This document shows positions 4,560-17,363 of a stretch of 22,138 nt of DNA, one piece after another; positions within the stretch are counted from its first letter, which is position 1; each line of letters opens with the position of its first letter. The stretch comes from Candidatus Hadarchaeales archaeon (GTDB lineage Archaea > Hadarchaeota > Hadarchaeia > Hadarchaeales > Hadarchaeaceae). The notes under the pieces were generated by a model. That model was not told where the DNA came from, searched no databases, and saw nothing but the letters and a program-made list of their open reading frames with translations. Location: NCBI GenBank assembly GCA_038851565.1, contig JAWCKV010000014.1, forward strand, positions 1 through 22,138, in the 5' to 3' direction. A program made the position numbers and the translations under genes.

Positions 4560-4651
4560 TTTATCGAATACAACTTGTTATCCGGGGTAATTTGGCTTAC
4601 GAACGCATCCAGAAGGGTTAAAAACAGGGCTGATGATGATGTGATGATTCG

Positions 4652-4876
4652 ATGACCCAGAGACCGCTTGACGTGCTGAACAGGGCGCTCGGCTCCCCAG
4701 TGCTGGTCGGGCTCAAGGGGGGACGAGAGCTCAGGGGGAAGCTGTCAGGATTCGACGTGCACGTAAACCTGGTGCTCGAGGAGGCCGAGGAGATACAGGG
4801 AGGGGAAGCGGTCAAGCGGTATGGGGTCATGGTGATAAGGGGAGATAGCGTCGTTTACATCTCTCCCGCAGGTTGA
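4652..4876 (+). CDS. lsm: Sm-like archaeal protein (SmAP1/Lsm)
   Basis: RPLDVLN, the Sm1 motif [14 protein letters not shown] and the Sm2 motif [11 protein letters not shown]. Lies directly upstream of rpl37e. Confidence 0.95.
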
Positions 4877-5111: not shown

Positions 5112-5218
5112 GGGCCGGTAGATCAGCCTGGAAATGGAGGGGAATATCTCCTTTCAACAGATTGATCGTCCGCTTGGCATGCGGGAGGTCGCGGGTTCAA
5201 ATCCCGCCCGGTCCACCA
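5112..5218 (+). tRNA. tRNA-Ala(GGC) with a non-canonical D-loop intron (about 5134-5162)
   Basis: Acceptor stem GGGCCGG/CCGGTCC with the Ala identity pair G3.U70. D-stem GATC/GATC, anticodon arm TCCGC-TTGGCAT-GCGGG, T-arm GCGGG-TTCAAAT-CCCGC and encoded CCA. A 29-nt insert in the D-loop forms a BHB-like motif. Confidence 0.93.
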
Positions 5219-5333: not shown

Positions 5334-5385
5334 CCTTTTCGGGCGCCTTTTTATTAGGGATAAACGTCAAGTATGCGTGGTCTGG

Positions 5386-6606
5386 ATGAGGCGTGCGTGT
5401 CTGGCGGTCATGATGGCTTCCCTCTTGATGCTGGTTTTCGGAAACCCGGCCAGCGCAGCTCAGGCCGATAATTGCGGGGTCGCTCCGGAAAATGGACCCT
5501 GGTCCTCCACGTTCGAGTTCTTTCTGGTTTACAGGGACAACTCTGGCGCCCTGCCTGAGGCGGGATATCCCCTGATATACCTTGACAACGTTGGGTTCCG
5601 GATGTCGGAAAACGATGAGCTGGACACGGACGCCTCTGATGGCAAGGTTTACATTTTCAGATGGACTCCGGGGGCTGAGAACATGGGGGATCACTCGTTC
5701 TATTTTCTGGTCGTGGACAACCTGGGGCGGGAGGTCAGGTATCCGCGGGAGGGCGCAGTGAGCGGTCCAGCGGTGTTGAAGGCCCAGGCCTCAATCCGTT
5801 CCGGAGTTTCAAGGACCAAGGTCTCCCTAGGGGATAAGGTTGATATATCGGGCATGGCGCTCGATGCCGCGGACAACACACCTATCGGCGGGGCATCCCT
5901 CACGCTCTGCAGGGTAAAATATGAAAATGGATCTCAGGCCGACGTTCCGGTCATGGAGCTCGTGAGCGAACAGGATGGCGGATTTTCAGCCGAGCTTGAG
6001 GTATCCGAGCAGGGCATTTCGTGTTACAGGATAAAGCTCGAGGACGATCTTCGCTATGAGAGCACGGTCTCGGACATCGTTTATGTCTCCAGCCTTGATG
6101 ACGGGGCACTCATCCTGAGCTATGTCGGGATATTCGGCGCGGTGCTCGTCCTCTTGAGTCTCCTCCTCACGGCGGGGCTGGCGAGGACTTTCTCAATTGG
6201 CATTTCTGCGGTTGGATCTCTTGTCGGATTCTTCCTGATGTACCTGGGAGCCGGGGAGCTCGGGGTGCTGGCCGCCGGGGCCGTATCCGGCTACGTGTCC
6301 GCAAGGAGGATTAGGGAGTGGGGCAGGCAGCTCAGGCTCGGCCTTGTGGCGGGGCTAATCCTGACGTTCCTCGTCGGCTGCATCATAGTGTACTTTCTCA
6401 CCCTTCCTCCCGATGTTCTCCGATTCAACTATTCGGTTACCCAGGGCGAGGTTTACTCTTCCCTGTTCCAGTGGTCACTTTACTCCGCCTTCCTGTTTGC
6501 CGTGCTGGCAGGCTTGGGAGCGGTGCTCGGGGGACTGTTACGCAAAATCTTAAAGCCGGGCGAAAGAGAGAGTTCACAGGTAGCGGGGAAAGACGCAGCG
6601 GGGTAG
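5386..6606 (+). CDS. Hypothetical membrane-anchored surface protein (signal peptide, beta-rich extracellular domains, about 5 C-terminal TM helices)
   Basis: Basic plus hydrophobic N-terminus ending ASA-AQA, then an acidic beta-strand-rich region, then a Gly/Leu-rich hydrophobic C-terminal third. TTTTATTA lies about 30 nt upstream. The start may be 5377 (GTG) or 5386 (ATG). Confidence 0.75.
   Translation: MRRACLAVMMASLLMLVFGNPASAAQADNCGVAPENGPWSSTFEFFLVYRDNSGALPEAGYPLIYLDNVGFRMSENDELDTDASDGKVYIFRWTPGAENMGDHSFYFLVVDNLGREVRYPREGAVSGPAVLKAQASIRSGVSRTKVSLGDKVDISGMALDAADNTPIGGASLTLCRVKYENGSQADVPVMELVSEQDGGFSAELEVSEQGISCYRIKLEDDLRYESTVSDIVYVSSLDDGALILSYVGIFGAVLVLLSLLLTAGLARTFSIGISAVGSLVGFFLMYLGAGELGVLAAGAVSGYVSARRIREWGRQLRLGLVAGLILTFLVGCIIVYFLTLPPDVLRFNYSVTQGEVYSSLFQWSLYSAFLFAVLAGLGAVLGGLLRKILKPGERESSQVAGKDAAG
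6541..6554 (+). promoter_or_regulatory. Putative BRE/TATA promoter for the tRNA-iMet, inside the upstream CDS
   Basis: CGCAAAA followed by TCTTAAA, an AT-rich patch in otherwise GC-rich coding sequence, ending about 43 nt upstream of the tRNA. Confidence 0.4.
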
Positions 6607-6784
6607 AGCGGGAGGCGAGCGCTTCCCTGCCCCTAAGGCAGCGTGGAGTGCCCGCCGGGCTCATAGGACATCGGGTTTACCCGATGCGCTGCGAGACCCG
6701 GAGACGTCCGTGGAGTTTGCACGGGCGCTGGAAGTCGGTGGTTCAAGGGAGGAAGCCCCTCTGAGAATCCACCCCCCGCTACCA
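6597..6784 (+). tRNA. Initiator tRNA-Met(CAT) interrupted by four introns (exons 6597-6606, 6637-6665, 6696-6703, 6734-6747, 6768-6784)
   Basis: The joined exons give a fully paired 78-nt cloverleaf: AGCGGGGTAGGGCAGCGTGGAGTGCCCGCCGGGCTCATAACCCGGAGGTCGGTGGTTCAAGTCCACCCCCCGCTACCA. It has A1-U72, G11-C24, three consecutive G-C pairs in the anticodon stem, a CAT anticodon and CCA. Each insert forms a hairpin and a strict or relaxed BHB. Confidence 0.93.
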
Positions 6785-6802: not shown

Positions 6803-7405
6803 ATGCTAATGGCCGTGCTGCTGATGATACCCACGATCCTGATCCTCGGCCCAGGTGCAGGTGCGGTCCTTGCCCTGAGCAGCGGCTTTTCCACCGCTGA
6901 GGCCATCCTGGCTGTGAGCCTGATACACGTTGGACTTGTTCCGGTTTGGTTCGGAATATTCGAGCTTCTCAGGTACACGATCAGGTACGAGAGGAGGGTG
7001 CTGAGGAAGTTCTTGAGATACGGAAAGATAGAAAGGTCATTGCGGAGTGCCTCAAGGGCAAACCTGATCGAGTTCGAGAGAAGGGTGGGGCAGCTAGGCC
7101 TGGGACTGGGAACCGCTGTTTTCACGTTCATCTTTGGCATCTCCTGGGCAGCTCTGGTCGCCCTCGCCCTCAACGTAAAGAGGCGCACCATTTTCATCTC
7201 AATCGCCCTGGGGGCGCTCGCATCTGGGATCTTCTGGAGTGCAGCTTTTGCCGGGTTGGGCGTCCTTGTCCCAAACCTCTGGGCGATGTACATCCTCGGT
7301 TTTGTTGTGACGCTGTGGTTCATGACTTACAGCAGAAGGAAGGAGCGCAGGGTCATTCAGGAGATGTCGAGGACCTTGAGGAAAATCGGGGCGGATAGGT
7401 CCTAG
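6803..7405 (+). CDS. Integral membrane protein, possibly small multi-drug export (COG2426-like) family
   Basis: About 5 hydrophobic segments with a basic loop, and a GISWAALVALALNVK motif. ATG at 6803 follows GGTGA; the ORF-track start at 6710 lies inside the tRNA. Confidence 0.6.
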   Translation: MLMAVLLMIPTILILGPGAGAVLALSSGFSTAEAILAVSLIHVGLVPVWFGIFELLRYTIRYERRVLRKFLRYGKIERSLRSASRANLIEFERRVGQLGLGLGTAVFTFIFGISWAALVALALNVKRRTIFISIALGALASGIFWSAAFAGLGVLVPNLWAMYILGFVVTLWFMTYSRRKERRVIQEMSRTLRKIGADRS

Positions 7406-8541
7406 CCGATCATGCCCTTCTTCCAGAGGTACTCCGCCGCCAGGACCGCCCCCTTCGCTGCCCCGAGCTCCGTGTTGTGCGAGAGGACCGTGTACTGAAA
7501 GCCCCTCTCAAACGAGTTCGCCTCAACGCCTCCCACGGCCACAACCATCCCCCCTTCCATCATGCAGTCAAACCTGGGCTGGGGCCTGTCCCTCTCCTCC
7601 ATGACCACTATCGGCCTTTCAGGAGCGGTTGGAAGCTTCATCCTCTGGGGCTCCCCGACGTAGTTCCTCCACGCCCTCTTGAGAGATTCCACATCGCAGG
7701 TTTTAGAAGTCTGGATGAAAACGGACTCGGTGTGTCCGTGAAGCACCGGTACCCTGTTGCATTTGCAGGCGATTCTGAAGCCCGCTGGCTCTATCCTTCC
7801 AGACCTGAACTTTCCGAGTATCCTCAGGGTCTCCTTCCTCACCTTGTCCTCCTCTTTCTCGATGTATGGTATAACGTTGCCCTCGAAGGTTCCCGGAACG
7901 AATGAGTCCAGCTCGGTCGGGAGGGAGCTCCCCTGCGTCCTGCGCTGCTCAGCCCACCTCAAGACCGCGGCGTATCCGGCTCCGGAAACCGCCTGCATCG
8001 AGGCCATGATCACCCCCTCGAGTCCGAACTCATCGTGTATGGGCTTGAGCGAGAGGGCAAGGCCTATGGTGGTGCAGTTCGGCTGCGGAACGACGAATCC
8101 CTTCCATCCACGGCTTTTTTTCTGAACCTCGATCATCGCCACATGCTCTTCGTTGACGCCCGGAAGGTAGGTGAAGCTGTCCTCAAAGTAGCGATATGCG
8201 GAGGCCGTGCTCACCACGGGCTTCTCTCTTGCCACCCTTCCCTCCAGCTCCAGCGCAACCTCTGAGGGAAGCGCGGAAAAGAACAGCTCGGCGTTTTCCG
8301 TGGAGACCCTTGTCACATCCCTAACGCGCATATCCAAGATCTCATCTTTGGGGGCCTCCTTCAGGAGCCAGCGTGAGCCCGCTTCTCCGTAACCAAGCGC
8401 CTCCGAGTACGATCTCCCAGCGGATTTTTCGGACGCGTATAGGGCAGTTATCTCAAACCACGGGTGGCCCTGAAGGTTCACCACGAACTTCTGCCCGACC
8501 TCGCCTGTGGCCCCGAGGATCGCAACCGGGATTTTTTCCAT
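7402..8541 (-). CDS. asd: Aspartate-semialdehyde dehydrogenase
   Basis: GATGEVGQ Rossmann motif, catalytic PNCTT, MQAVSGAG, RVPVLHGH and SHNTELGAA. Confidence 0.95.
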   Translation of the reverse strand: MEKIPVAILGATGEVGQKFVVNLQGHPWFEITALYASEKSAGRSYSEALGYGEAGSRWLLKEAPKDEILDMRVRDVTRVSTENAELFFSALPSEVALELEGRVAREKPVVSTASAYRYFEDSFTYLPGVNEEHVAMIEVQKKSRGWKGFVVPQPNCTTIGLALSLKPIHDEFGLEGVIMASMQAVSGAGYAAVLRWAEQRRTQGSSLPTELDSFVPGTFEGNVIPYIEKEEDKVRKETLRILGKFRSGRIEPAGFRIACKCNRVPVLHGHTESVFIQTSKTCDVESLKRAWRNYVGEPQRMKLPTAPERPIVVMEERDRPQPRFDCMMEGGMVVAVGGVEANSFERGFQYTVLSHNTELGAAKGAVLAAEYLWKKGMIG

Positions 8542-8607
8542 GCTTCACCCACTCTAAATACGGCTAAACTCTTTTATCGGTTTTTGAAAAAGTCCTCTGG
8601 GACATGC

Positions 8608-8739
8608 ATGCCCAGGAGAAAATACGGCCATATGGTTGGCCCCCTTCCAAGCCCCCCAAAGCCGGAGAAGTGCAGGTTCTGCAGGCTTCGGCGCCCCTGT
8701 CCATATCACGGGGACAAGAAGGGAGGATCTGGGCGTTGA
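8608..8739 (+). CDS. Putative 43-aa basic zinc-binding microprotein
   Basis: MPRRKYGHMVGPLPSPPKPEKCRFCRLRRPCPYHGDKKGGSGR fills the asd-dapB gap and carries CxxC-x5-CxxH. TTTTAT lies about 30 nt upstream. Confidence 0.5.
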   Translation: MPRRKYGHMVGPLPSPPKPEKCRFCRLRRPCPYHGDKKGGSGR

Positions 8740-8742
8740 CCT

Positions 8743-9519
8743 TTATCTCAGCCCAAGCACGTCATCCATCCCGTGTATCTCTCCGGGCTTTCCCCCCTTC
8801 ACGACGTGCCTTATGGCATTCACGACGCCTGCGACGAACGCCTCCCGGCTATTTGCCCTGTGAGCGATCTCAATTCTCTCCTCCGGCCTAGAGAATATCA
8901 CGGCGTGCTCTCCCACCACCTCCCCTTCCCTGATGGATTTTATCGGTATTTCATCGTGTGCCCTGCCGAGCGCCCTAGCCAGGATCTCGGCGGCCTTCTT
9001 CGCGGTGCCGCTCGGTGCGTCCTTTTTGTGAACGTGATGTACCTCCACTATCTCAACGTCGTATTCCGGGCCGAGCATTTGCGCGGCGTGCTCAATAGTT
9101 TTGAAGAACACGTTGACCCCCACCGACATGTTTGGCGATATCACAGCGGGAATCCTCCCCCTTTTTATTGTTTCCTCAATGGTCTTCATCTGTTCTCCTG
9201 TGAATCCGGTGGTCCCAACCACCACAGCCGCTCCAGCATCCGCAGCGGCCTTCACGTTTTCCACGGCAGCAGATGCGTTCGTGAAGTCCACAAGTACCTC
9301 GGGACTTGAACCTGCCAGCACTTCCCTGATTCGATCCGCACCCGCTATCTTCACGCCGATGCTCCCGACTCCCGCGACAACCCCGGCGTCCTTACCTATC
9401 TCCGGATTGTCCGGGGCATCCACGGCCCCCACGAGCTTCATGTCCTTCTCTCTGGAGATCTGCCGGACTATGAGCCTGCCCATGCGCCCGCAGGCCCCGC
9501 ACACAACCACCCTTATCAC
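8743..9519 (-). CDS. dapB: 4-hydroxy-tetrahydrodipicolinate reductase
   Basis: GACGRMG, VDFT, VVGTTG, PNMSVGVN and EVHHVHKKDAPSGTA. Confidence 0.96.
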   Translation of the reverse strand: MIRVVVCGACGRMGRLIVRQISREKDMKLVGAVDAPDNPEIGKDAGVVAGVGSIGVKIAGADRIREVLAGSSPEVLVDFTNASAAVENVKAAADAGAAVVVGTTGFTGEQMKTIEETIKRGRIPAVISPNMSVGVNVFFKTIEHAAQMLGPEYDVEIVEVHHVHKKDAPSGTAKKAAEILARALGRAHDEIPIKSIREGEVVGEHAVIFSRPEERIEIAHRANSREAFVAGVVNAIRHVVKGGKPGEIHGMDDVLGLR

Positions 9520-10400
9520 GGTCGCACCAGCTTCATTTCGGCAAGAACCTGTCGAAGCTTTTTCTGGTTCTCGGGCTCCATCTCCACCAGCGGAAGCCTG
9601 ACCCCTCCCGCTGGCATCCCCATCCAGTTCATGGCAGTCTTCACCGGAGCGGGATTGGTCTCTATGAAGAGGGCCTTGTAGAGCGGCCGGAGTTCTCTAT
9701 CTATCCTCTCCGCCCTCTCAACGTCACCCGACCGAAAGGCCTCGATCATGGCAGCCACTTTGTCCGGAACGATGTTCGATGCCACTGATATCACCCCAAC
9801 TCCCCCCAGCTTCATCATCTCAAGTGTGTCGGAGTCGTTTCCGGATATCACCACAAAGTCCTCGCCGCGAGTTAGCTCAATTATCCTCCTCACCTGGTTC
9901 ATGTCGCCGCTCGCCTCCTTCACCCCAACTATGTTCTTGAGCCTCGCCAGCTTTGCCATGGTCTCCGGAAGCATGTTCACACCGGTCCGGGAGGGGATGT
10001 TGTATATCACCTGGGGGATGTCCACCTCCTCCGCGATTTTCTTGAAGTGTGCGTAAAGGCCGGCCTGCGTCGGCCTGTTGTAGTACGGGACCACAAGGAG
10101 GGCCCCATCCGCCCCGGCCTCCTTGGCGTGCCTCGTGAGCATGATGGCCTCCCATGTGCTGTTGCTTCCGGTTCCGGCGAGGACGGGCACCCTCCCGTTC
10201 GCTGCCTCCACCACGATGTCCACAACGCGGTTGTGCTCCTCGTAGGAAAGCGTGGAGCACTCTCCGGTCGTTCCCACGGGCACCAGGCCGTGTATCCCGC
10301 TCCTTATCTGGAACTCCACGTTCTTTTTCAGTCCTTCTTCGTCCAGCTCTCCATCCGGGCCAAAAGGCGTGACCATCGCTGTATATGCGCCCTCAAACAT
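9516..10400 (-). CDS. dapA: 4-hydroxy-tetrahydrodipicolinate synthase
   Basis: VTPF, GTTGE, PYYN, YNIPSRTG, GVKEASG and FIETNPAPVK. Confidence 0.96.
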   Translation of the reverse strand: MFEGAYTAMVTPFGPDGELDEEGLKKNVEFQIRSGIHGLVPVGTTGECSTLSYEEHNRVVDIVVEAANGRVPVLAGTGSNSTWEAIMLTRHAKEAGADGALLVVPYYNRPTQAGLYAHFKKIAEEVDIPQVIYNIPSRTGVNMLPETMAKLARLKNIVGVKEASGDMNQVRRIIELTRGEDFVVISGNDSDTLEMMKLGGVGVISVASNIVPDKVAAMIEAFRSGDVERAERIDRELRPLYKALFIETNPAPVKTAMNWMGMPAGGVRLPLVEMEPENQKKLRQVLAEMKLVRP

Positions 10401-10410
10401 CCCCTGTCCC

Positions 10411-11631
10411 CTATATGTTCTCCATTCCCTTCCTGAAAAGCCTGAGCGCCTTCTCCCTGTCCTCCCACTTCACGAAGAAGCTGATGGATGCCCTGCTTGA
10501 AAGTATCTCGACTATGTTTATTCCGGCCTCCGCCACCGGTGCAGTAAGCTTGGCGATTACTCCGGGCGTGTATATGAACTTCTCGCTCTGGGCCACTATC
10601 ATCGCCAGCCTCTCCTCGCTTGTTACGGCCTTCATGTGTTTGTCCCTGAGCACGACATCGTGGATGAGCCTGAGCGCCTTCTCCGCGTCATCGTTGGACA
10701 CGTAAACTGAGAACGACCTCGGGCCTATGGAAACTCCAAATATGTTGATCTTCGCCCTGCTGAGGGGCTGCGCCACCTTTGCGAGTATGCCAGGGGTGCG
10801 CTGCATTTCCTCGCCCACCACGGTGAGCATGCAGAGCATCTTCTCGAAGAGCTCCACCCCGGCGGTCTCCTCCTCCCTTGGCCCTATTATTATGGTCCCC
10901 CCCGCTCTCAGGTTTCCATGCCTGAAGTGTATAACCCTTGCTCTTATATCAGGATCCTTGTAGTTCATCGCCCTGCTGTGCATCACCCTTGCCCCGAACC
11001 TGGCGAGATCCCTCATCTCCTCCACGGTGAGTTCGTTTATGATGCGCGTCCCCCTGACCATGTTCGGGTCTGCGGTCATCACACCGTCGACATCGGTAAC
11101 GATTATCACCTCGTCTGCCTTTGCGCATTTACCGATCAGGAATCCCGTCGTGTCGCTTCCTCCCCTCCCTATGGTCGTGATTTCACCCGATGGCGTGCGT
11201 CCCAGGAAGCCGCATATCACCGGAACCGCCCCCTTTTCCATGATGGGAACTATATGCCTCCTCACCCTCCTCTGGGTCTCCTTGAGGTCTATGTTTGCCT
11301 CCTCAAACCTGTCGTCAGTTATAACGGGCCACCTCTCATCGAGCGGATCTATGAACTCACATGGAATGCCCAGCTTTCTGAGGGCGGACGAGAATATCCT
11401 CACGCTGACCCTTTCCCCCATCGCCATTATGTAGTCCATCTCCTTCTTGCTCCACTTTCCGCACCTCTGGGCTGCCTCCACCAGCGCGTCCGTGGTGTGC
11501 CCCATTGCGGACACCACAACCGCGACCTGGTTTCCTTTTTTGTATTCCCTTGCGACCGCCCTAGCGCAGAGATGGACCCGTTCCATGTTGCCGACGCTGG
11601 TGCCGCCGAACTTCACGACCAGCCTTTCCAA
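10411..11631 (-). CDS. lysC: Aspartate kinase with C-terminal ACT domains
   Basis: VVKFGGTSV, VVSAMGHTTD, TTIGRGGSD and TDVDGVMTADP. The TTG start directly follows the lysA stop. Confidence 0.94.
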   Translation of the reverse strand: MERLVVKFGGTSVGNMERVHLCARAVAREYKKGNQVAVVVSAMGHTTDALVEAAQRCGKWSKKEMDYIMAMGERVSVRIFSSALRKLGIPCEFIDPLDERWPVITDDRFEEANIDLKETQRRVRRHIVPIMEKGAVPVICGFLGRTPSGEITTIGRGGSDTTGFLIGKCAKADEVIIVTDVDGVMTADPNMVRGTRIINELTVEEMRDLARFGARVMHSRAMNYKDPDIRARVIHFRHGNLRAGGTIIIGPREEETAGVELFEKMLCMLTVVGEEMQRTPGILAKVAQPLSRAKINIFGVSIGPRSFSVYVSNDDAEKALRLIHDVVLRDKHMKAVTSEERLAMIVAQSEKFIYTPGVIAKLTAPVAEAGINIVEILSSRASISFFVKWEDREKALRLFRKGMENI

Positions 11632-12936
11632 TCACATCCACCCGGGCACCCTGTCGAGCTGGGTGAGGTACTCAAAGGTTTCCCTCTCCCGCACCACTTC
11701 AGCCTTCCCATTGTTCACCATGACCATCGCCGGACGGGGCTGGGCGGTGTGCTGGTTTGACATGGATAGCCCGTACGCCCCAACGTCGAATATCACCGCG
11801 AGGTCGCCCTGCTCCGGCTTCTGCAGCATCCTTTCCTTGCCCAGGAAATCCCCCGACTCGCACAGCGGCCCGGCCACATTGACCAAGACCTCATTCTTCT
11901 CGGATATCTTGTTTGCAAGTTCTATGTGGTGGTATGCCCCGTAGAGCGCGGGCCTTATCAGCGCATTCATGCCGGCGTCCACGGACACCCATGTGGGCAT
12001 TCCCGGCCTCTCCTTCACGTAGCCGACCCTTGCGAGCAGGACTGTGGAATCGCCCACGATGTACCTGCCGGGCTCAAGGCAAACAGTGAGGTCAGGTATG
12101 TTCCTCTCCTCAACCACCCTCCTCACCACCCCTATCATCCTCTCGGCAACCTCCCCGGGCTGCAGCTCGCGATCCTCAGGCCTGTACGGGATCCCTATCC
12201 CGCCGCCGAAGTCCACGTGCGAGAGCCATATCCCGGTTTCCTCCTTCACCTGCACGAGGAGCGCCATCAGTTTCTCTGCCTCCTCCAAGAATGGAGCTGT
12301 GTCGAGCAGCTGCGAGCCTATGTGTGCGTGGATCCCCAGCACCTCAACCTCCTTCATCCTGGCAGCCGCCTTGTAGGCCTCGATCGCCTGTCCGCTCAGA
12401 ACATCAAAACCGAACTTGCTTTCCCTGAGGCCCGTTGCTATGTAGGGATGTGTGTCCACCCTGACATCCGGGTTAACCCTGAACCCGATCCTGGCCTTCT
12501 TCCCCAGCTTTCCCGCGATGCGTCCCACCGCCTTCAGCTCCTGGAAGTTATCGACGTTTATCATCACTCCGTTTGCCACGCACATCTCGAGCTCCCTCTC
12601 GGTCTTGTAGTTTCCGTTGAAGACCATGTCCTTCGGCTCGATGCCTGCTCTCATCGCTATCCTCAGCTCGCTGAGGGAGCTCACGTCCGCCCCCGCCCCC
12701 TCGGTTTGGAGAACCTTGACCACTGCGGTGTTGAAGTTGGCCTTAAGCGCGTAGAACACCTTGACCCTCGGCCACCTCTCGGAGAAAGCCCTGTAAAACC
12801 TCCTGTATTTTTCCCTTATCCTCTGCTCGTCGGTAACGTAGAGCGGCGTCCCGAATCGCTCCGCCAGCTCGACCGCATCCACCCCGCCTATTGTCAGGTG
12901 ACCCCTCGAGTTCACGCCGAAGTGTGATTTCAGCAT
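11632..12936 (-). CDS. lysA: Diaminopimelate decarboxylase
   Basis: FGTPLYV, YALKAN (PLP lysine), HAHIGSQ, DFGGG, EPGRYIV, GPLCESGD and GAYG. The true start is ATG at 12936, overlapping the upstream stop (TGATG). Confidence 0.94.
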   Translation of the reverse strand: MLKSHFGVNSRGHLTIGGVDAVELAERFGTPLYVTDEQRIREKYRRFYRAFSERWPRVKVFYALKANFNTAVVKVLQTEGAGADVSSLSELRIAMRAGIEPKDMVFNGNYKTERELEMCVANGVMINVDNFQELKAVGRIAGKLGKKARIGFRVNPDVRVDTHPYIATGLRESKFGFDVLSGQAIEAYKAAARMKEVEVLGIHAHIGSQLLDTAPFLEEAEKLMALLVQVKEETGIWLSHVDFGGGIGIPYRPEDRELQPGEVAERMIGVVRRVVEERNIPDLTVCLEPGRYIVGDSTVLLARVGYVKERPGMPTWVSVDAGMNALIRPALYGAYHHIELANKISEKNEVLVNVAGPLCESGDFLGKERMLQKPEQGDLAVIFDVGAYGLSMSNQHTAQPRPAMVMVNNGKAEVVRERETFEYLTQLDRVPGWM

Positions 12937-14288
12937 CAGCACCTGCGCTCCACCTCCCTTATGGATTCCTCGAGGATGTCGAGCCCCAGCTCGAGGTCCC
13001 TCTCCGGAATTGTGAAGTTGGGGGCTATCCTTATGGAGGACTTCCCTCCCCTGAACAGGAGCAGCCCACGCTTGAGCGCCTCCTGCATCACCATCTCCCT
13101 CTCGTCCACCCCGTAGTCCTTCGTGTTCCTGGACTTCACGAACTCGATCGCCATCAGGAACCCCATCCCCCTGACGTCTCCAACTATTTTTGATTTCTCC
13201 CCGATTTCCTTCAGCCGCTTCAGCGCTTTCTTCCCCAGCCTCGCCACCCTGTCGACCAGCCTTTCCTCCTTCAGGATCTTCAGCCCCTCTATTGCGGCGG
13301 CGCACGCCACCAGATTGCCTCCAAACGTGGAGGCATGTGCGCCTGGCTTCCAGTCCATGATGCTCTCCCTCGCTATTGTGGCCCCTATCGGCGCGATCCC
13401 GCCCCCGAGTCCCTTCGCAAGGCATATTATGTCGGGAACCACTCCCCAGTGCTCTATCGCGAACATCTTTCCAGATCTTCCAAGCCCCGTCTGTATCTCA
13501 TCAGCTATGAAAATCCAACCGTTCTCCTCGCATAGCTCCTTGAGCATCGGGTAGAAATCCGGTGGAGGTATCACGTATCCTGAGGTCCCCTGGATGGGCT
13601 CTGTTATCACGGCCGCAACCTCGTTTGCAGGCACCCTGTCCCTCGTCGCCCTGATTATGTACTCTATGCACATGTGAGATACCTCGGAGGGTTTCCAGCC
13701 CATTGGCGGCCTGTATGGATTTGGAAACGGCATGAAGCTCACCCCGGGAACCAGCGGCGCGAAGCGCTCGGAGTACTTCACGTTGCTGGTTAGGCTGAGG
13801 GAGCCCATGGTCCTTCCGTGAAATCCGCCCTCGAAGGCTATCATCCTGGGACGCCCCGTGTGCCACCTCACGCACTTGAAGGCTGCTTCAACCGCCTCAG
13901 TCCCGCTGTTGGACAGAAAGACCTTTTTGTTAAACCTTCCGGGCGTCATGCTGACCAGGCGCTCAGCGAGGTCGACCTGTGCCTCATAGTAAAAGTCGGT
14001 CCCGGCGAAGTGTGTCAGTTTTCTCAGCTGCTTCTCCACAGCAGCGATGAGCCTCGGATGGGAGTACCCGTAGTTCATCACAAACATTCCGGAGGTCAGG
14101 TCTAGTATGACGTTTCCATCCACGTCCTTTATGTAACATCCCCATCCTTCCTCAGCCACCACGGGCTCAGCTCGGGTGTATGAGGGTGACATGACCCTCC
14201 TGTCCCTCCTGAGAAGCCTCTTCGCGCGTGGTCCCGGAATCAGGCTTTTTATCCTCGGGCCACCCCCGACCCAGGATGGTTTTTTCAC
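12936..14288 (-). CDS. Class III PLP-dependent aminotransferase (acetylornithine/4-aminobutyrate aminotransferase family)
   Basis: DVDGN, NSGTEAVE, FHGRT, EPIQG, DEIQTGLGRSG, AKGLGGG (PLP lysine) and HASTFGGN. First gene of the lysine cluster. Confidence 0.9.
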   Translation of the reverse strand: MKKPSWVGGGPRIKSLIPGPRAKRLLRRDRRVMSPSYTRAEPVVAEEGWGCYIKDVDGNVILDLTSGMFVMNYGYSHPRLIAAVEKQLRKLTHFAGTDFYYEAQVDLAERLVSMTPGRFNKKVFLSNSGTEAVEAAFKCVRWHTGRPRMIAFEGGFHGRTMGSLSLTSNVKYSERFAPLVPGVSFMPFPNPYRPPMGWKPSEVSHMCIEYIIRATRDRVPANEVAAVITEPIQGTSGYVIPPPDFYPMLKELCEENGWIFIADEIQTGLGRSGKMFAIEHWGVVPDIICLAKGLGGGIAPIGATIARESIMDWKPGAHASTFGGNLVACAAAIEGLKILKEERLVDRVARLGKKALKRLKEIGEKSKIVGDVRGMGFLMAIEFVKSRNTKDYGVDEREMVMQEALKRGLLLFRGGKSSIRIAPNFTIPERDLELGLDILEESIREVERRC

Positions 14289-17064: not shown

Positions 17065-17363
17065 CGCCGGCGTGCTGGCCGTAACCCACCTTCTGTTTTA
17101 GGCGACATTCAGCTGAGCGGGCTACCACCCGCCTCCGGCAGGCGTTCATCGGCGGAAACTTGCCCTTGCATCCCGCGGGTTGGCCGTTTCATCCTCTCCG
17201 GAACAACTTCAGCCTTCCGGCATCATCATGCACGAACCGGGAGGTGTCGTTTCTGTGCCATTGCCCCAACCTCTCGGCTGGGCCCTTGCGGGCTCGCGGG
17301 CCTGCCCGATGGGTGGAGTTTCCTCAGGCTTTCGCCCGACGGTCGCCCACCAGCTCGCCGGCA
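17065..17363 (-). ncRNA. rnpB: RNase P RNA (archaeal, type A)
   Basis: Minus strand carries the P4 motifs GAGGAAACTCCACCC (17325-17311) and AAACAGAAGGTGGGTTAC (17098-17081). P1 is GCCGGCGAGCTGG/CCAGCACGCCGGC. Also present are ACAGAAA and TGAAAC, P8 GCCC-GCAA-GGGC, P9 CCAGCC-GAGA-GGTTGG, and an upstream TATTATTA. Confidence 0.93.

Follow-up and report, generated by a model that had tools for sequence, protein, structure and literature searches.

A four-intron initiator tRNA gene in Hadarchaeota and a leader copy of its acceptor strand as a candidate aid to splicing

The 22,138-nucleotide (nt) stretch of DNA analyzed here, referred to throughout as the window (Candidatus Hadarchaeales archaeon, contig JAWCKV010000014.1, positions 1 to 22,138), carries on its forward strand, at positions 6597–6784, a gene for initiator tRNA that is interrupted by four short introns and preceded in its leader by a copy of the acceptor-stem 5′ strand. 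When the four inserts are cut out, a 78-nt cloverleaf is left, which ARAGORN, run on the spliced sequence, reads as tRNA-Met(cat). All parts lie on the plus strand. Exon 1 (6597–6606, 10 nt, tRNA nts 1–10), whose last codon doubles as the stop of an upstream open reading frame (ORF), is followed by the 30-nt intron 1 at 10/11 (6607–6636); exon 2 (6637–6665, 29 nt, nts 11–37) holds the D arm and the anticodon CAT and ends at the 30-nt intron 2 at the canonical 37/38 site (6666–6695); exon 3 (6696–6703, 8 nt, nts 38–45) precedes the 30-nt intron 3 at 45/46 (6704–6733), and exon 4 (6734–6747, 14 nt, nts 46–59) the 20-nt intron 4 at 59/60 (6748–6767). Exon 5 (6768–6784, 17 nt, nts 60–76) closes the gene with an encoded CCA. 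The five exons are colinear on a single strand, and the gene is thus neither split nor permuted. Initiator tRNAs are marked by an A1-U72 pair and three G-C pairs at 29-31:39-41; the spliced cloverleaf has both, the latter as GGG/CCC in the anticodon stem, along with the CAU anticodon and a G11-C24 pair, and belongs by these features among the initiators.

The first-pass annotation, made from the letters of the window, had proposed an initiator gene with bulge-helix-bulge (BHB)-type introns at these four positions. For a check independent of that reading, we aligned the locus with splicing against the intron-free initiator gene of a related genome (G010), and all eight intron boundaries came out the same, at a score of 107; 100 dinucleotide shuffles gave a mean of 3.2, a standard deviation of 5.3 and a maximum of 19. 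The spliced product is identical at 72 of 75 positions to four intron-free genes of kin and at 67–70 of 75 to five others. As had been expected of standard finders, ARAGORN and the Rfam model RF00005 both miss the unspliced gene. The host genome (G000) has a separate elongator Met gene on contig C8, and no second initiator gene, the existence of which the first-pass annotation had left as a question, was found in this bin, which is 87% complete. DNA contigs from two runs of two studies (X1 and X2) cover the gene with no differing letter among the matches listed, and one or the other may be the source sample of the assembly. Loose ends at 6637 in runs X7, X1 and X3 resembled an exon 1–exon 2 junction and were set aside, as their flanks are like those of 37/38-only genes of genus g13 and point to another species' gene, not to splicing; run X7, labeled metatranscriptomic, is probably DNA. 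We regard it as nearly certain that the locus is a genuine initiator tRNA gene with four introns, and, judging from the sequence, the four inserts are likely spliced out.

The splice motifs were compared with those of kin. A D-stem motif was found in 52 of the 66 genomes of the phylum and a further search added two; the resulting 54 loci were passed to a parser, which yielded 51 complete genes. Left out before the counts were the extra motif hits L074, L076, L087, L093 and L096 (scores −22 to 34), the loci L083 and L092, cut by contig ends, and L097, which the script could not parse. In the window gene, intron 4 has the strict hBHBh′ motif that had been claimed for it, with all four central pairs, an inner helix of 4 and an outer helix of 5. 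Intron 3 (HBh′) has likewise the predicted central helix of four pairs, one of them G-U, and an inner helix of 8, with no outer pair; its central helix draws on nts 40–43 of the anticodon stem. These two show the features that define the BHB motif: a central helix of 4 base pairs (bp), bulges of 3 nt, and a flanking helix on one side or both. Introns 1 and 2 are of the relaxed class and reach three of four central pairs, as had been noted; of the strong inner hairpins ascribed to both, intron 1 bears out an inner helix of 5, without a contiguous outer helix, but intron 2, with an outer helix of 5, has a single inner pair, followed by a small loop and then the 7-bp hairpin. The central helix of intron 1 draws on acceptor nts 5–8. 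A like geometry recurs in 19/19 kin at 10/11 and in 26/30 at 37/38, the relaxed class being a permissive one. The 10/11 intron is present in 19 of the 51 parsed genes, with U8 opposite C in every case; nine are intron-free, and exact removal of the short inserts restores a tRNA. No clear sequence likeness was seen between the introns of the window gene and those of other tRNA genes in the host genome.

A further feature lies upstream of exon 1. At 6579–6588 (+), three leader bases followed by a repeat of tRNA nts 1–7 form an exact reverse complement of 6774–6783, near the 3′ end, which pairs at 10/10 positions with this leader copy and at 8/10 with the true 5′ strand; the window holds two matches against 0.08 expected. 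The extent of 6597–6784 assigned earlier is right for the tRNA part and leaves the copy outside. The copy is offset 15 nt upstream of the true acceptor 5′ strand, and comparison with kin places an 8-nt spacer (6589–6596, +) between it and tRNA nt 1. In most kin the spacer holds a 5–6 nt partner able to fold back on the copy; in the window gene, three pairs are possible. Further upstream, a putative promoter with a TFB recognition element (BRE) and a TATA-like box (6541–6555, +; box at 6549–6555) lies within the 3′ end of the upstream ORF. From the start of the box to the first base of the copy is 33 nt in the window gene, and in the 27/28 copy-bearing genes that have a box, it stands 29–34 nt before the copy; in the 16/22 copy-less genes that have one, it stands 27–37 nt before A1. 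With the copy some 30 nt past the box, at the spacing where copy-less genes begin, the transcript likely starts at about the leader copy. A scan for bacterial promoters and terminators, which does not cover archaeal promoters, found nothing.

Across kin, the presence of the copy follows the position of the introns. We counted as a copy any leader 10-mer that pairs at 9–10 positions with nts 66–75. By this measure, all 28 initiator genes with an intron at 4/5 or 10/11 have a copy, against one of the 23 without such an intron; the unparsed L097 shows by eye a 10/11 intron and a leader copy, and its inclusion would give 29/29. The one copy-bearing gene without an early intron is that of G016, whose congeners have the intron, and the copy-less genes reach at most seven pairs. 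In each of the six genera that contain both kinds of gene, the copy tracks the intron. No copy accompanies introns at 14/15 or beyond, which form their central helix outside the acceptor strand. The pairing is kept at 9–10 of 10 positions while the spacing of the repeat units ranges from 14 to 23 nt; the copy has substitutions at nts 3, 5 or 7 in 11/29 genes and the true strand in 0/29, and copy and 3′ end have changed in matched fashion in two of the 29, both from one genus.

The association is not confined to the initiator. In the host genome, the only other genes with early introns are those for Asn (8/9) and Lys-CTT (9/10; its template label is Met), and both have a tandem copy, giving 3/3 early-intron genes against 0/34 other tRNA genes. 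The tRNA-Asn gene (C27:1076–1224, −) also has a 37/38 intron and the tRNA-Lys(CTT) gene (C7:22474–22588, +) an anticodon-stem intron; the 8/9 and 9/10 introns of the two genes have strict motifs once the acceptor strand is freed. Among 154 noninitiator genes, drawn from the host genome, from tRNA loci retrieved for G010 and for G025, and from pattern-selected loci of 20 and 21 of the 66 genomes, a part that misses genes with D-loop introns, the copy is present in all 13 genes with an early intron (Asn 8/9 or 9/10-type Lys) and in one of the other 141. The repeat units are 6 nt long in the Lys genes and 8–11 nt in the Asn genes. In metagenomes, the copy pattern was found in 119 stretches, and among the 80 listed, 13 are initiator genes, 11 of them with the 10/11 intron. 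In a tRNA-Asp gene of the host genome (C33:7983–8108, +), one intron interrupts the 3′ acceptor strand and another the T arm; in its trailer, no copy of the 3′ strand was found within 25 nt of the gene.

The central helix of intron 1 cannot coexist with the normal acceptor stem because both need nts 5–8, and we think it probable, on the strength of these patterns and of folding models, that the leader copy acts as a surrogate acceptor strand that lets intron 1 be removed. In the course of events that we propose, transcription would start at about the copy, and the copy would pair with nts 66–75, leaving nts 5–8 free for the central helix. After cutting, the copy would keep the 10-nt exon 1 attached to the tRNA body until the exons are ligated. 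Cleavage by RNase P at the copy's first base, or trimming of the 3′ end, would then cancel the 3-bp advantage of the copy and allow the true strand to take over, and finally, a second RNase P cut, at 6597, would make the mature 5′ end. Introns 3 and 4 are predicted to leave first, followed by intron 1 and then intron 2; the modeled costs of forming the motif in the full precursor (in kcal/mol, as are all costs below) are 2.7 for intron 3, 4.0 for intron 4, 6.4 for intron 1 and 11.3 for intron 2. The overlap of introns 2 and 3 at nts 40–43 was considered as the reason for the last rank of intron 2 and rejected, since removal of intron 3 leaves the cost at 11.2–11.4.

The models are secondary-structure folds made with ViennaRNA. 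In precursors with only the 10/11 intron left, the copy is predicted to occupy the 3′ strand with a probability of 0.73–1.0 in 19/19 cases. The median cost of the 10/11 motif at 37 °C is 3.9 with the leader, 7.9 when the copy is replaced by A (higher in 18/19 genes) and 10.3 with a 3-nt leader (higher in 19/19); at 70 °C, the same costs are 4.2, 6.3 and 8.3. The copy would also strengthen the tether of leader and exon 1 to the tRNA body, from −6.9 to −15.0 kcal/mol in the 10/11 genes (19/19) and from −1.5 to −13.0 kcal/mol in the 4/5 genes (9/9). We considered a simple release switch, with the leader changing its fold once splicing is done and thereby releasing the 3′ end, and rejected it, as in the models the copy keeps the upper hand until one of the ends is trimmed; in the window gene, it beats the true strand after splicing by 5.1 kcal/mol, which is why a trimming step would be required. 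When the three bases before the copy are removed, mimicking the first cut, the true strand is favored in 27/29 genes at 37 °C, and the cut hardly alters the help to splicing (median cost of the 10/11 motif 4.1). Such a first cut would fit the order in M. kandleri, where, by the accessible text of PMC3695527, ends are trimmed before splicing, and it predicts the second cut at 6597.

Several observations tell against the copy as a surrogate strand. The folding model is without tertiary structure, Mg or protein. At 37 °C, the window gene is itself the one exception to the trend, with a cost of 9.5 with the copy and 8.6 with A's; it follows the trend otherwise (12.7 with the short leader at 37 °C, and 5.2, 6.8 and 9.2 at 70 °C). 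Introns at 4/5 get no modeled help from the copy in forming their motif (median 0.0), and in a consensus fold of seven genes, a competing 9-bp helix buries the 5′ splice site of intron 1. In modeled spliced molecules that keep the whole leader, just 6/29 genes favor the true strand at 37 °C, falling to 3/29 at 70 °C, and at the higher temperature, trimming succeeds in 18/29 by the first cut or 11/29 at the 3′ end. The gene of G016 carries a copy without an early intron, as do two identical metagenome loci (L247/L287) with introns at 29/30 and 64/65. Finally, the kin are not independent, and the counts come down to three tRNA types and about six contrasts. As a separate observation, the 64/65 intron of L247/L287 leaves a very short last exon, which the copy might hold.

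The exceptions feed the alternative that fares best among the rest, namely that the four introns are real and the copy is a neutral relic of a 5′-end duplication that took place when an intron cassette arrived, merely tolerated ever since. The copy does occupy the ancestral position of the 5′ end, as measured from the TATA-like box; it is still there in G016 and L247/L287, which have no early intron, and it brings no modeled gain to the motif of the 4/5 introns nor, compared with a run of A's at 37 °C, to that of the window gene. Still, we hold this to be unlikely: introns elsewhere come without the copy (1/141 genes), copy and intron are jointly absent in six genera, the pairing has been kept over repeat units of 14–23 nt and across three tRNA types, and an unneeded copy should, by the folding model, hinder maturation.

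Two further alternatives have very little in their favor. That the upstream copy is the true exon 1, and the repeat unit between the copies a fifth intron, would agree with the usual promoter distance of the copy and with its better pairing to the 3′ end; the reading was rejected, as among the registers that leave the mature sequence intact, none offers four central pairs plus an inner helix (0/29 genes), the best register varies between genes, the Lys and Asn units are too short for a BHB intron, and it is the upstream copy that drifts and not the downstream strand. Just as improbable is a regulatory brake, with the copy keeping initiator precursors unfinished until growth conditions release them: the copy-paired state is indeed predicted to dominate even after splicing, but the copy tracks the position of the intron rather than the type of tRNA, being absent from 22/23 initiator genes that have no early intron and found in the Asn and Lys genes that do. 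Conservation of the copy as a piece of protein was also considered and rejected, since, from one relative to the next, the upstream ORF reads through the copy in another frame or ends ahead of it. Least credible of all is a pseudogene or assembly artifact yielding no tRNA, for although another gene copy could be missing from an incomplete bin that seems to mix two related genomes, this is the only initiator gene found there, its exons are intact, DNA from two studies covers it, and G001, G022 and G042 have introns of diverged sequence at the same four positions.

The host belongs to the Hadarchaeota and not to the Thermoproteales, and intron-rich initiator genes are common in its phylum. A pattern for initiator genes with a 10/11 insert gave 37 matches in the genome collection, of which 18 are archaeal, every one from Hadarchaeota; the 19 bacterial ones were taken to be chance, those among the matches listed scoring 28–43 or being unparsed. 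The 51 parsed genes have no intron in nine cases, one in 12, two in two, three in six, four in 14, five in seven and six in one; four is the commonest count, and 22/51 genes have at least four. The six-intron gene (L018; G003:C41, ∼5360–5610) has introns at 4/5, 15/16, 30/31, 37/38, 45/46 and 59/60 together with a leader copy and splices to tRNA-Met(cat). In the host genome as a whole, 19 of 37 tRNA genes hold 27 introns, of which 11 have strict motifs, nine a single flanking helix and seven three central pairs. The 45/46 intron is always accompanied by one at the canonical site (16/16 initiator genes). In L005–L013, L017 and L073–L088, the 34-nt 37/38 and 21-nt 30/31 initiator introns are near-identical across several genera and patchy in presence, which suggests, as far as sequences can tell, lateral spread by recombination. 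In viral contigs, 0/7 matches were initiator genes (scores −20 to 20), and no homing endonuclease was found among the 24 window ORFs scanned. The 37/38 introns of tRNA-Asn in L169–L190, 55–62 nt long, have conserved internal motifs that resemble C/D guide boxes, and similar motifs are seen in the introns of Trp and elongator Met; guide RNA encoded within introns is a possibility.

The enzymes expected for such processing are encoded in the host genome. Its EndA of 179 residues matches the M. jannaschii protein 1a79 over the full length (E 1e-40), and pairwise alignments give it the Tyr-His spacing of 1a79 and neither the ARMAN-2 insert nor the A. pernix loop. Of the 59 genomes, among 66, with any EndA match, 56 have one, and family searches of four and five kin found no second subunit over the cut-off; with one gene of ∼180 residues, catalytic Tyr, His and Lys and no beta subunit gene, the enzyme appears from its sequence to be of the alpha4 type. 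The host genome has two EndA copies (C49 and C10), 89% identical and both beside trpS, which are not an alpha/beta pair. tRNA-Arg(CCT) is likewise found twice (C8 and C15), once with and once without an intron, as is tRNA-Pro(TGG) (C10 and C49), and from these doublings, the bin likely mixes two related genomes. RtcB is encoded, its gene cut by a contig end, and an archaeal RNase P RNA lies in the window at 17070–17358 (−; 221 bits with Rfam), overlapped by spurious ORFs. In the accessible parts of PMC3239211, PMC4090602 and PMC12397907, relaxed motifs are tied to a two-subunit EndA; PMC5829648 (Kaneta et al. 2018), as far as its text was available, assigns an alpha4 EndA and more disrupted tRNAs to one Hadesarchaea genome, and on that account we do not count a lone short EndA in a lineage rich in introns as new.

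On either side of the tRNA lies an ORF for a hydrophobic protein, and both ORFs keep their place beside it in many kin. The upstream ORF (5377–6606, +; 409 residues) has no Pfam hit and a hydrophobic C terminus, its tail spanning the promoter and leader of the tRNA, and a similar sequence lies upstream of the initiator gene in 23 other loci of the 54 searched; the downstream one (6803–7405, +) has a weak match to Sm_multidrug_ex below the cut-off. A tRNA-Ala(GGC) gene at 5112–5218 (+), with a 29-nt D-loop intron (∼5134–5162), was missed by ARAGORN and gives only a weak transfer-messenger RNA or partial tRNA match in Rfam. A run of TGA/ATG triplets at 4631–4655 (+) directly precedes the start codon of LSm. 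On the minus strand, 7402–13425 holds a lysine (diaminopimelate, DAP) cluster, asd-dapB-dapA-aspartokinase-lysA, in which the 597-residue decarboxylase ORF has ∼200 N-terminal residues without a Pfam hit.

Overall, the intron count alone is a modest point, and the interest lies in the surrogate strand of the leader. Introns near the acceptor stem pose a folding conflict, with bases of the motif locked in the most stable helix of the tRNA and an exon 1 of only 4–10 nt, and a spare leader strand that comes and goes with introns of this kind, in tRNAs of three types, suggests that the conflict has a simple answer in cis. A wider proposal, which we advance tentatively and would give slightly less than an even chance, is that the leader strand is a built-in splicing chaperone and exon tether of archaeal pre-tRNAs, cleared by two successive RNase P cuts, that lets introns invade positions 4–11 and, in Hadarchaeota, works with a plain single-gene EndA handling up to six mostly relaxed introns in the initiator tRNA, an essential molecule. 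The matter bears on the order of end trimming and splicing in archaea and on how introns spread to any position of a tRNA, and it has a practical side for annotation, the host genome seeming by ARAGORN or Rfam to have no initiator tRNA at all.

How the gene relates to known systems depends on the group chosen. The available text of PMC8450103 and PMC3239211 gives three introns as the maximum per tRNA gene, and that of PMC3728597 gives three as the highest count for C. merolae; the earlier suggestion that four introns exceed the described maximum holds against the former and fails against the up to five intervening sequences per gene stated for Asgard archaea in the parts seen of an October 2026 preprint (bioRxiv 10.64898/2026.10.13.758758). 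Four introns are not a record, and the six in G003 are above any printed count that we found. With the multi-intron genes of Thermoproteales and other archaea, as portrayed in the consulted portions of PMC8450103, PMC4090602 and PMC3239211, the window gene shares short BHB or relaxed introns, canonical and noncanonical sites and stepwise removal; it differs in having four introns, with up to six in kin, in its Hadarchaeota host, in a single short EndA gene instead of a two-subunit enzyme and in the leader copy, of which those portions make no mention. The Asgard tRNA genes, over half of which have multiple introns according to the accessible text of PMC11291895, resemble it, there and in the preprint's main text, in their many introns, often missed by finders, and in their patchy gains; the host genome has fewer introns overall than they do, concentrated in the initiator gene. 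The main text of the preprint, as available, contains no "leader," "initiator" or "Hadarchae." Literature searches found no published description of an acceptor-stem copy or decoy in a leader, and the Asgard supplements may list genes with at least four introns or leader repeats.

Further parallels are with one enzyme and one class of genes. The Hadesarchaea alpha4 EndA of PMC5829648 has its counterpart in the one gene of ∼180 residues in most genomes here; that paper, in the part consulted, credits an "L3" loop, and the host EndA aligns without the ARMAN-2 insert or the A. pernix loop. In split and permuted tRNA genes, as the accessible text of PMC4090602 describes them, flanking transcript likewise pairs to enable splicing and is then discarded. 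There, leader and trailer pair with each other, building a BHB motif or joining halves, whereas here the leader would take the place of an exon strand, acting in cis inside a single colinear gene.

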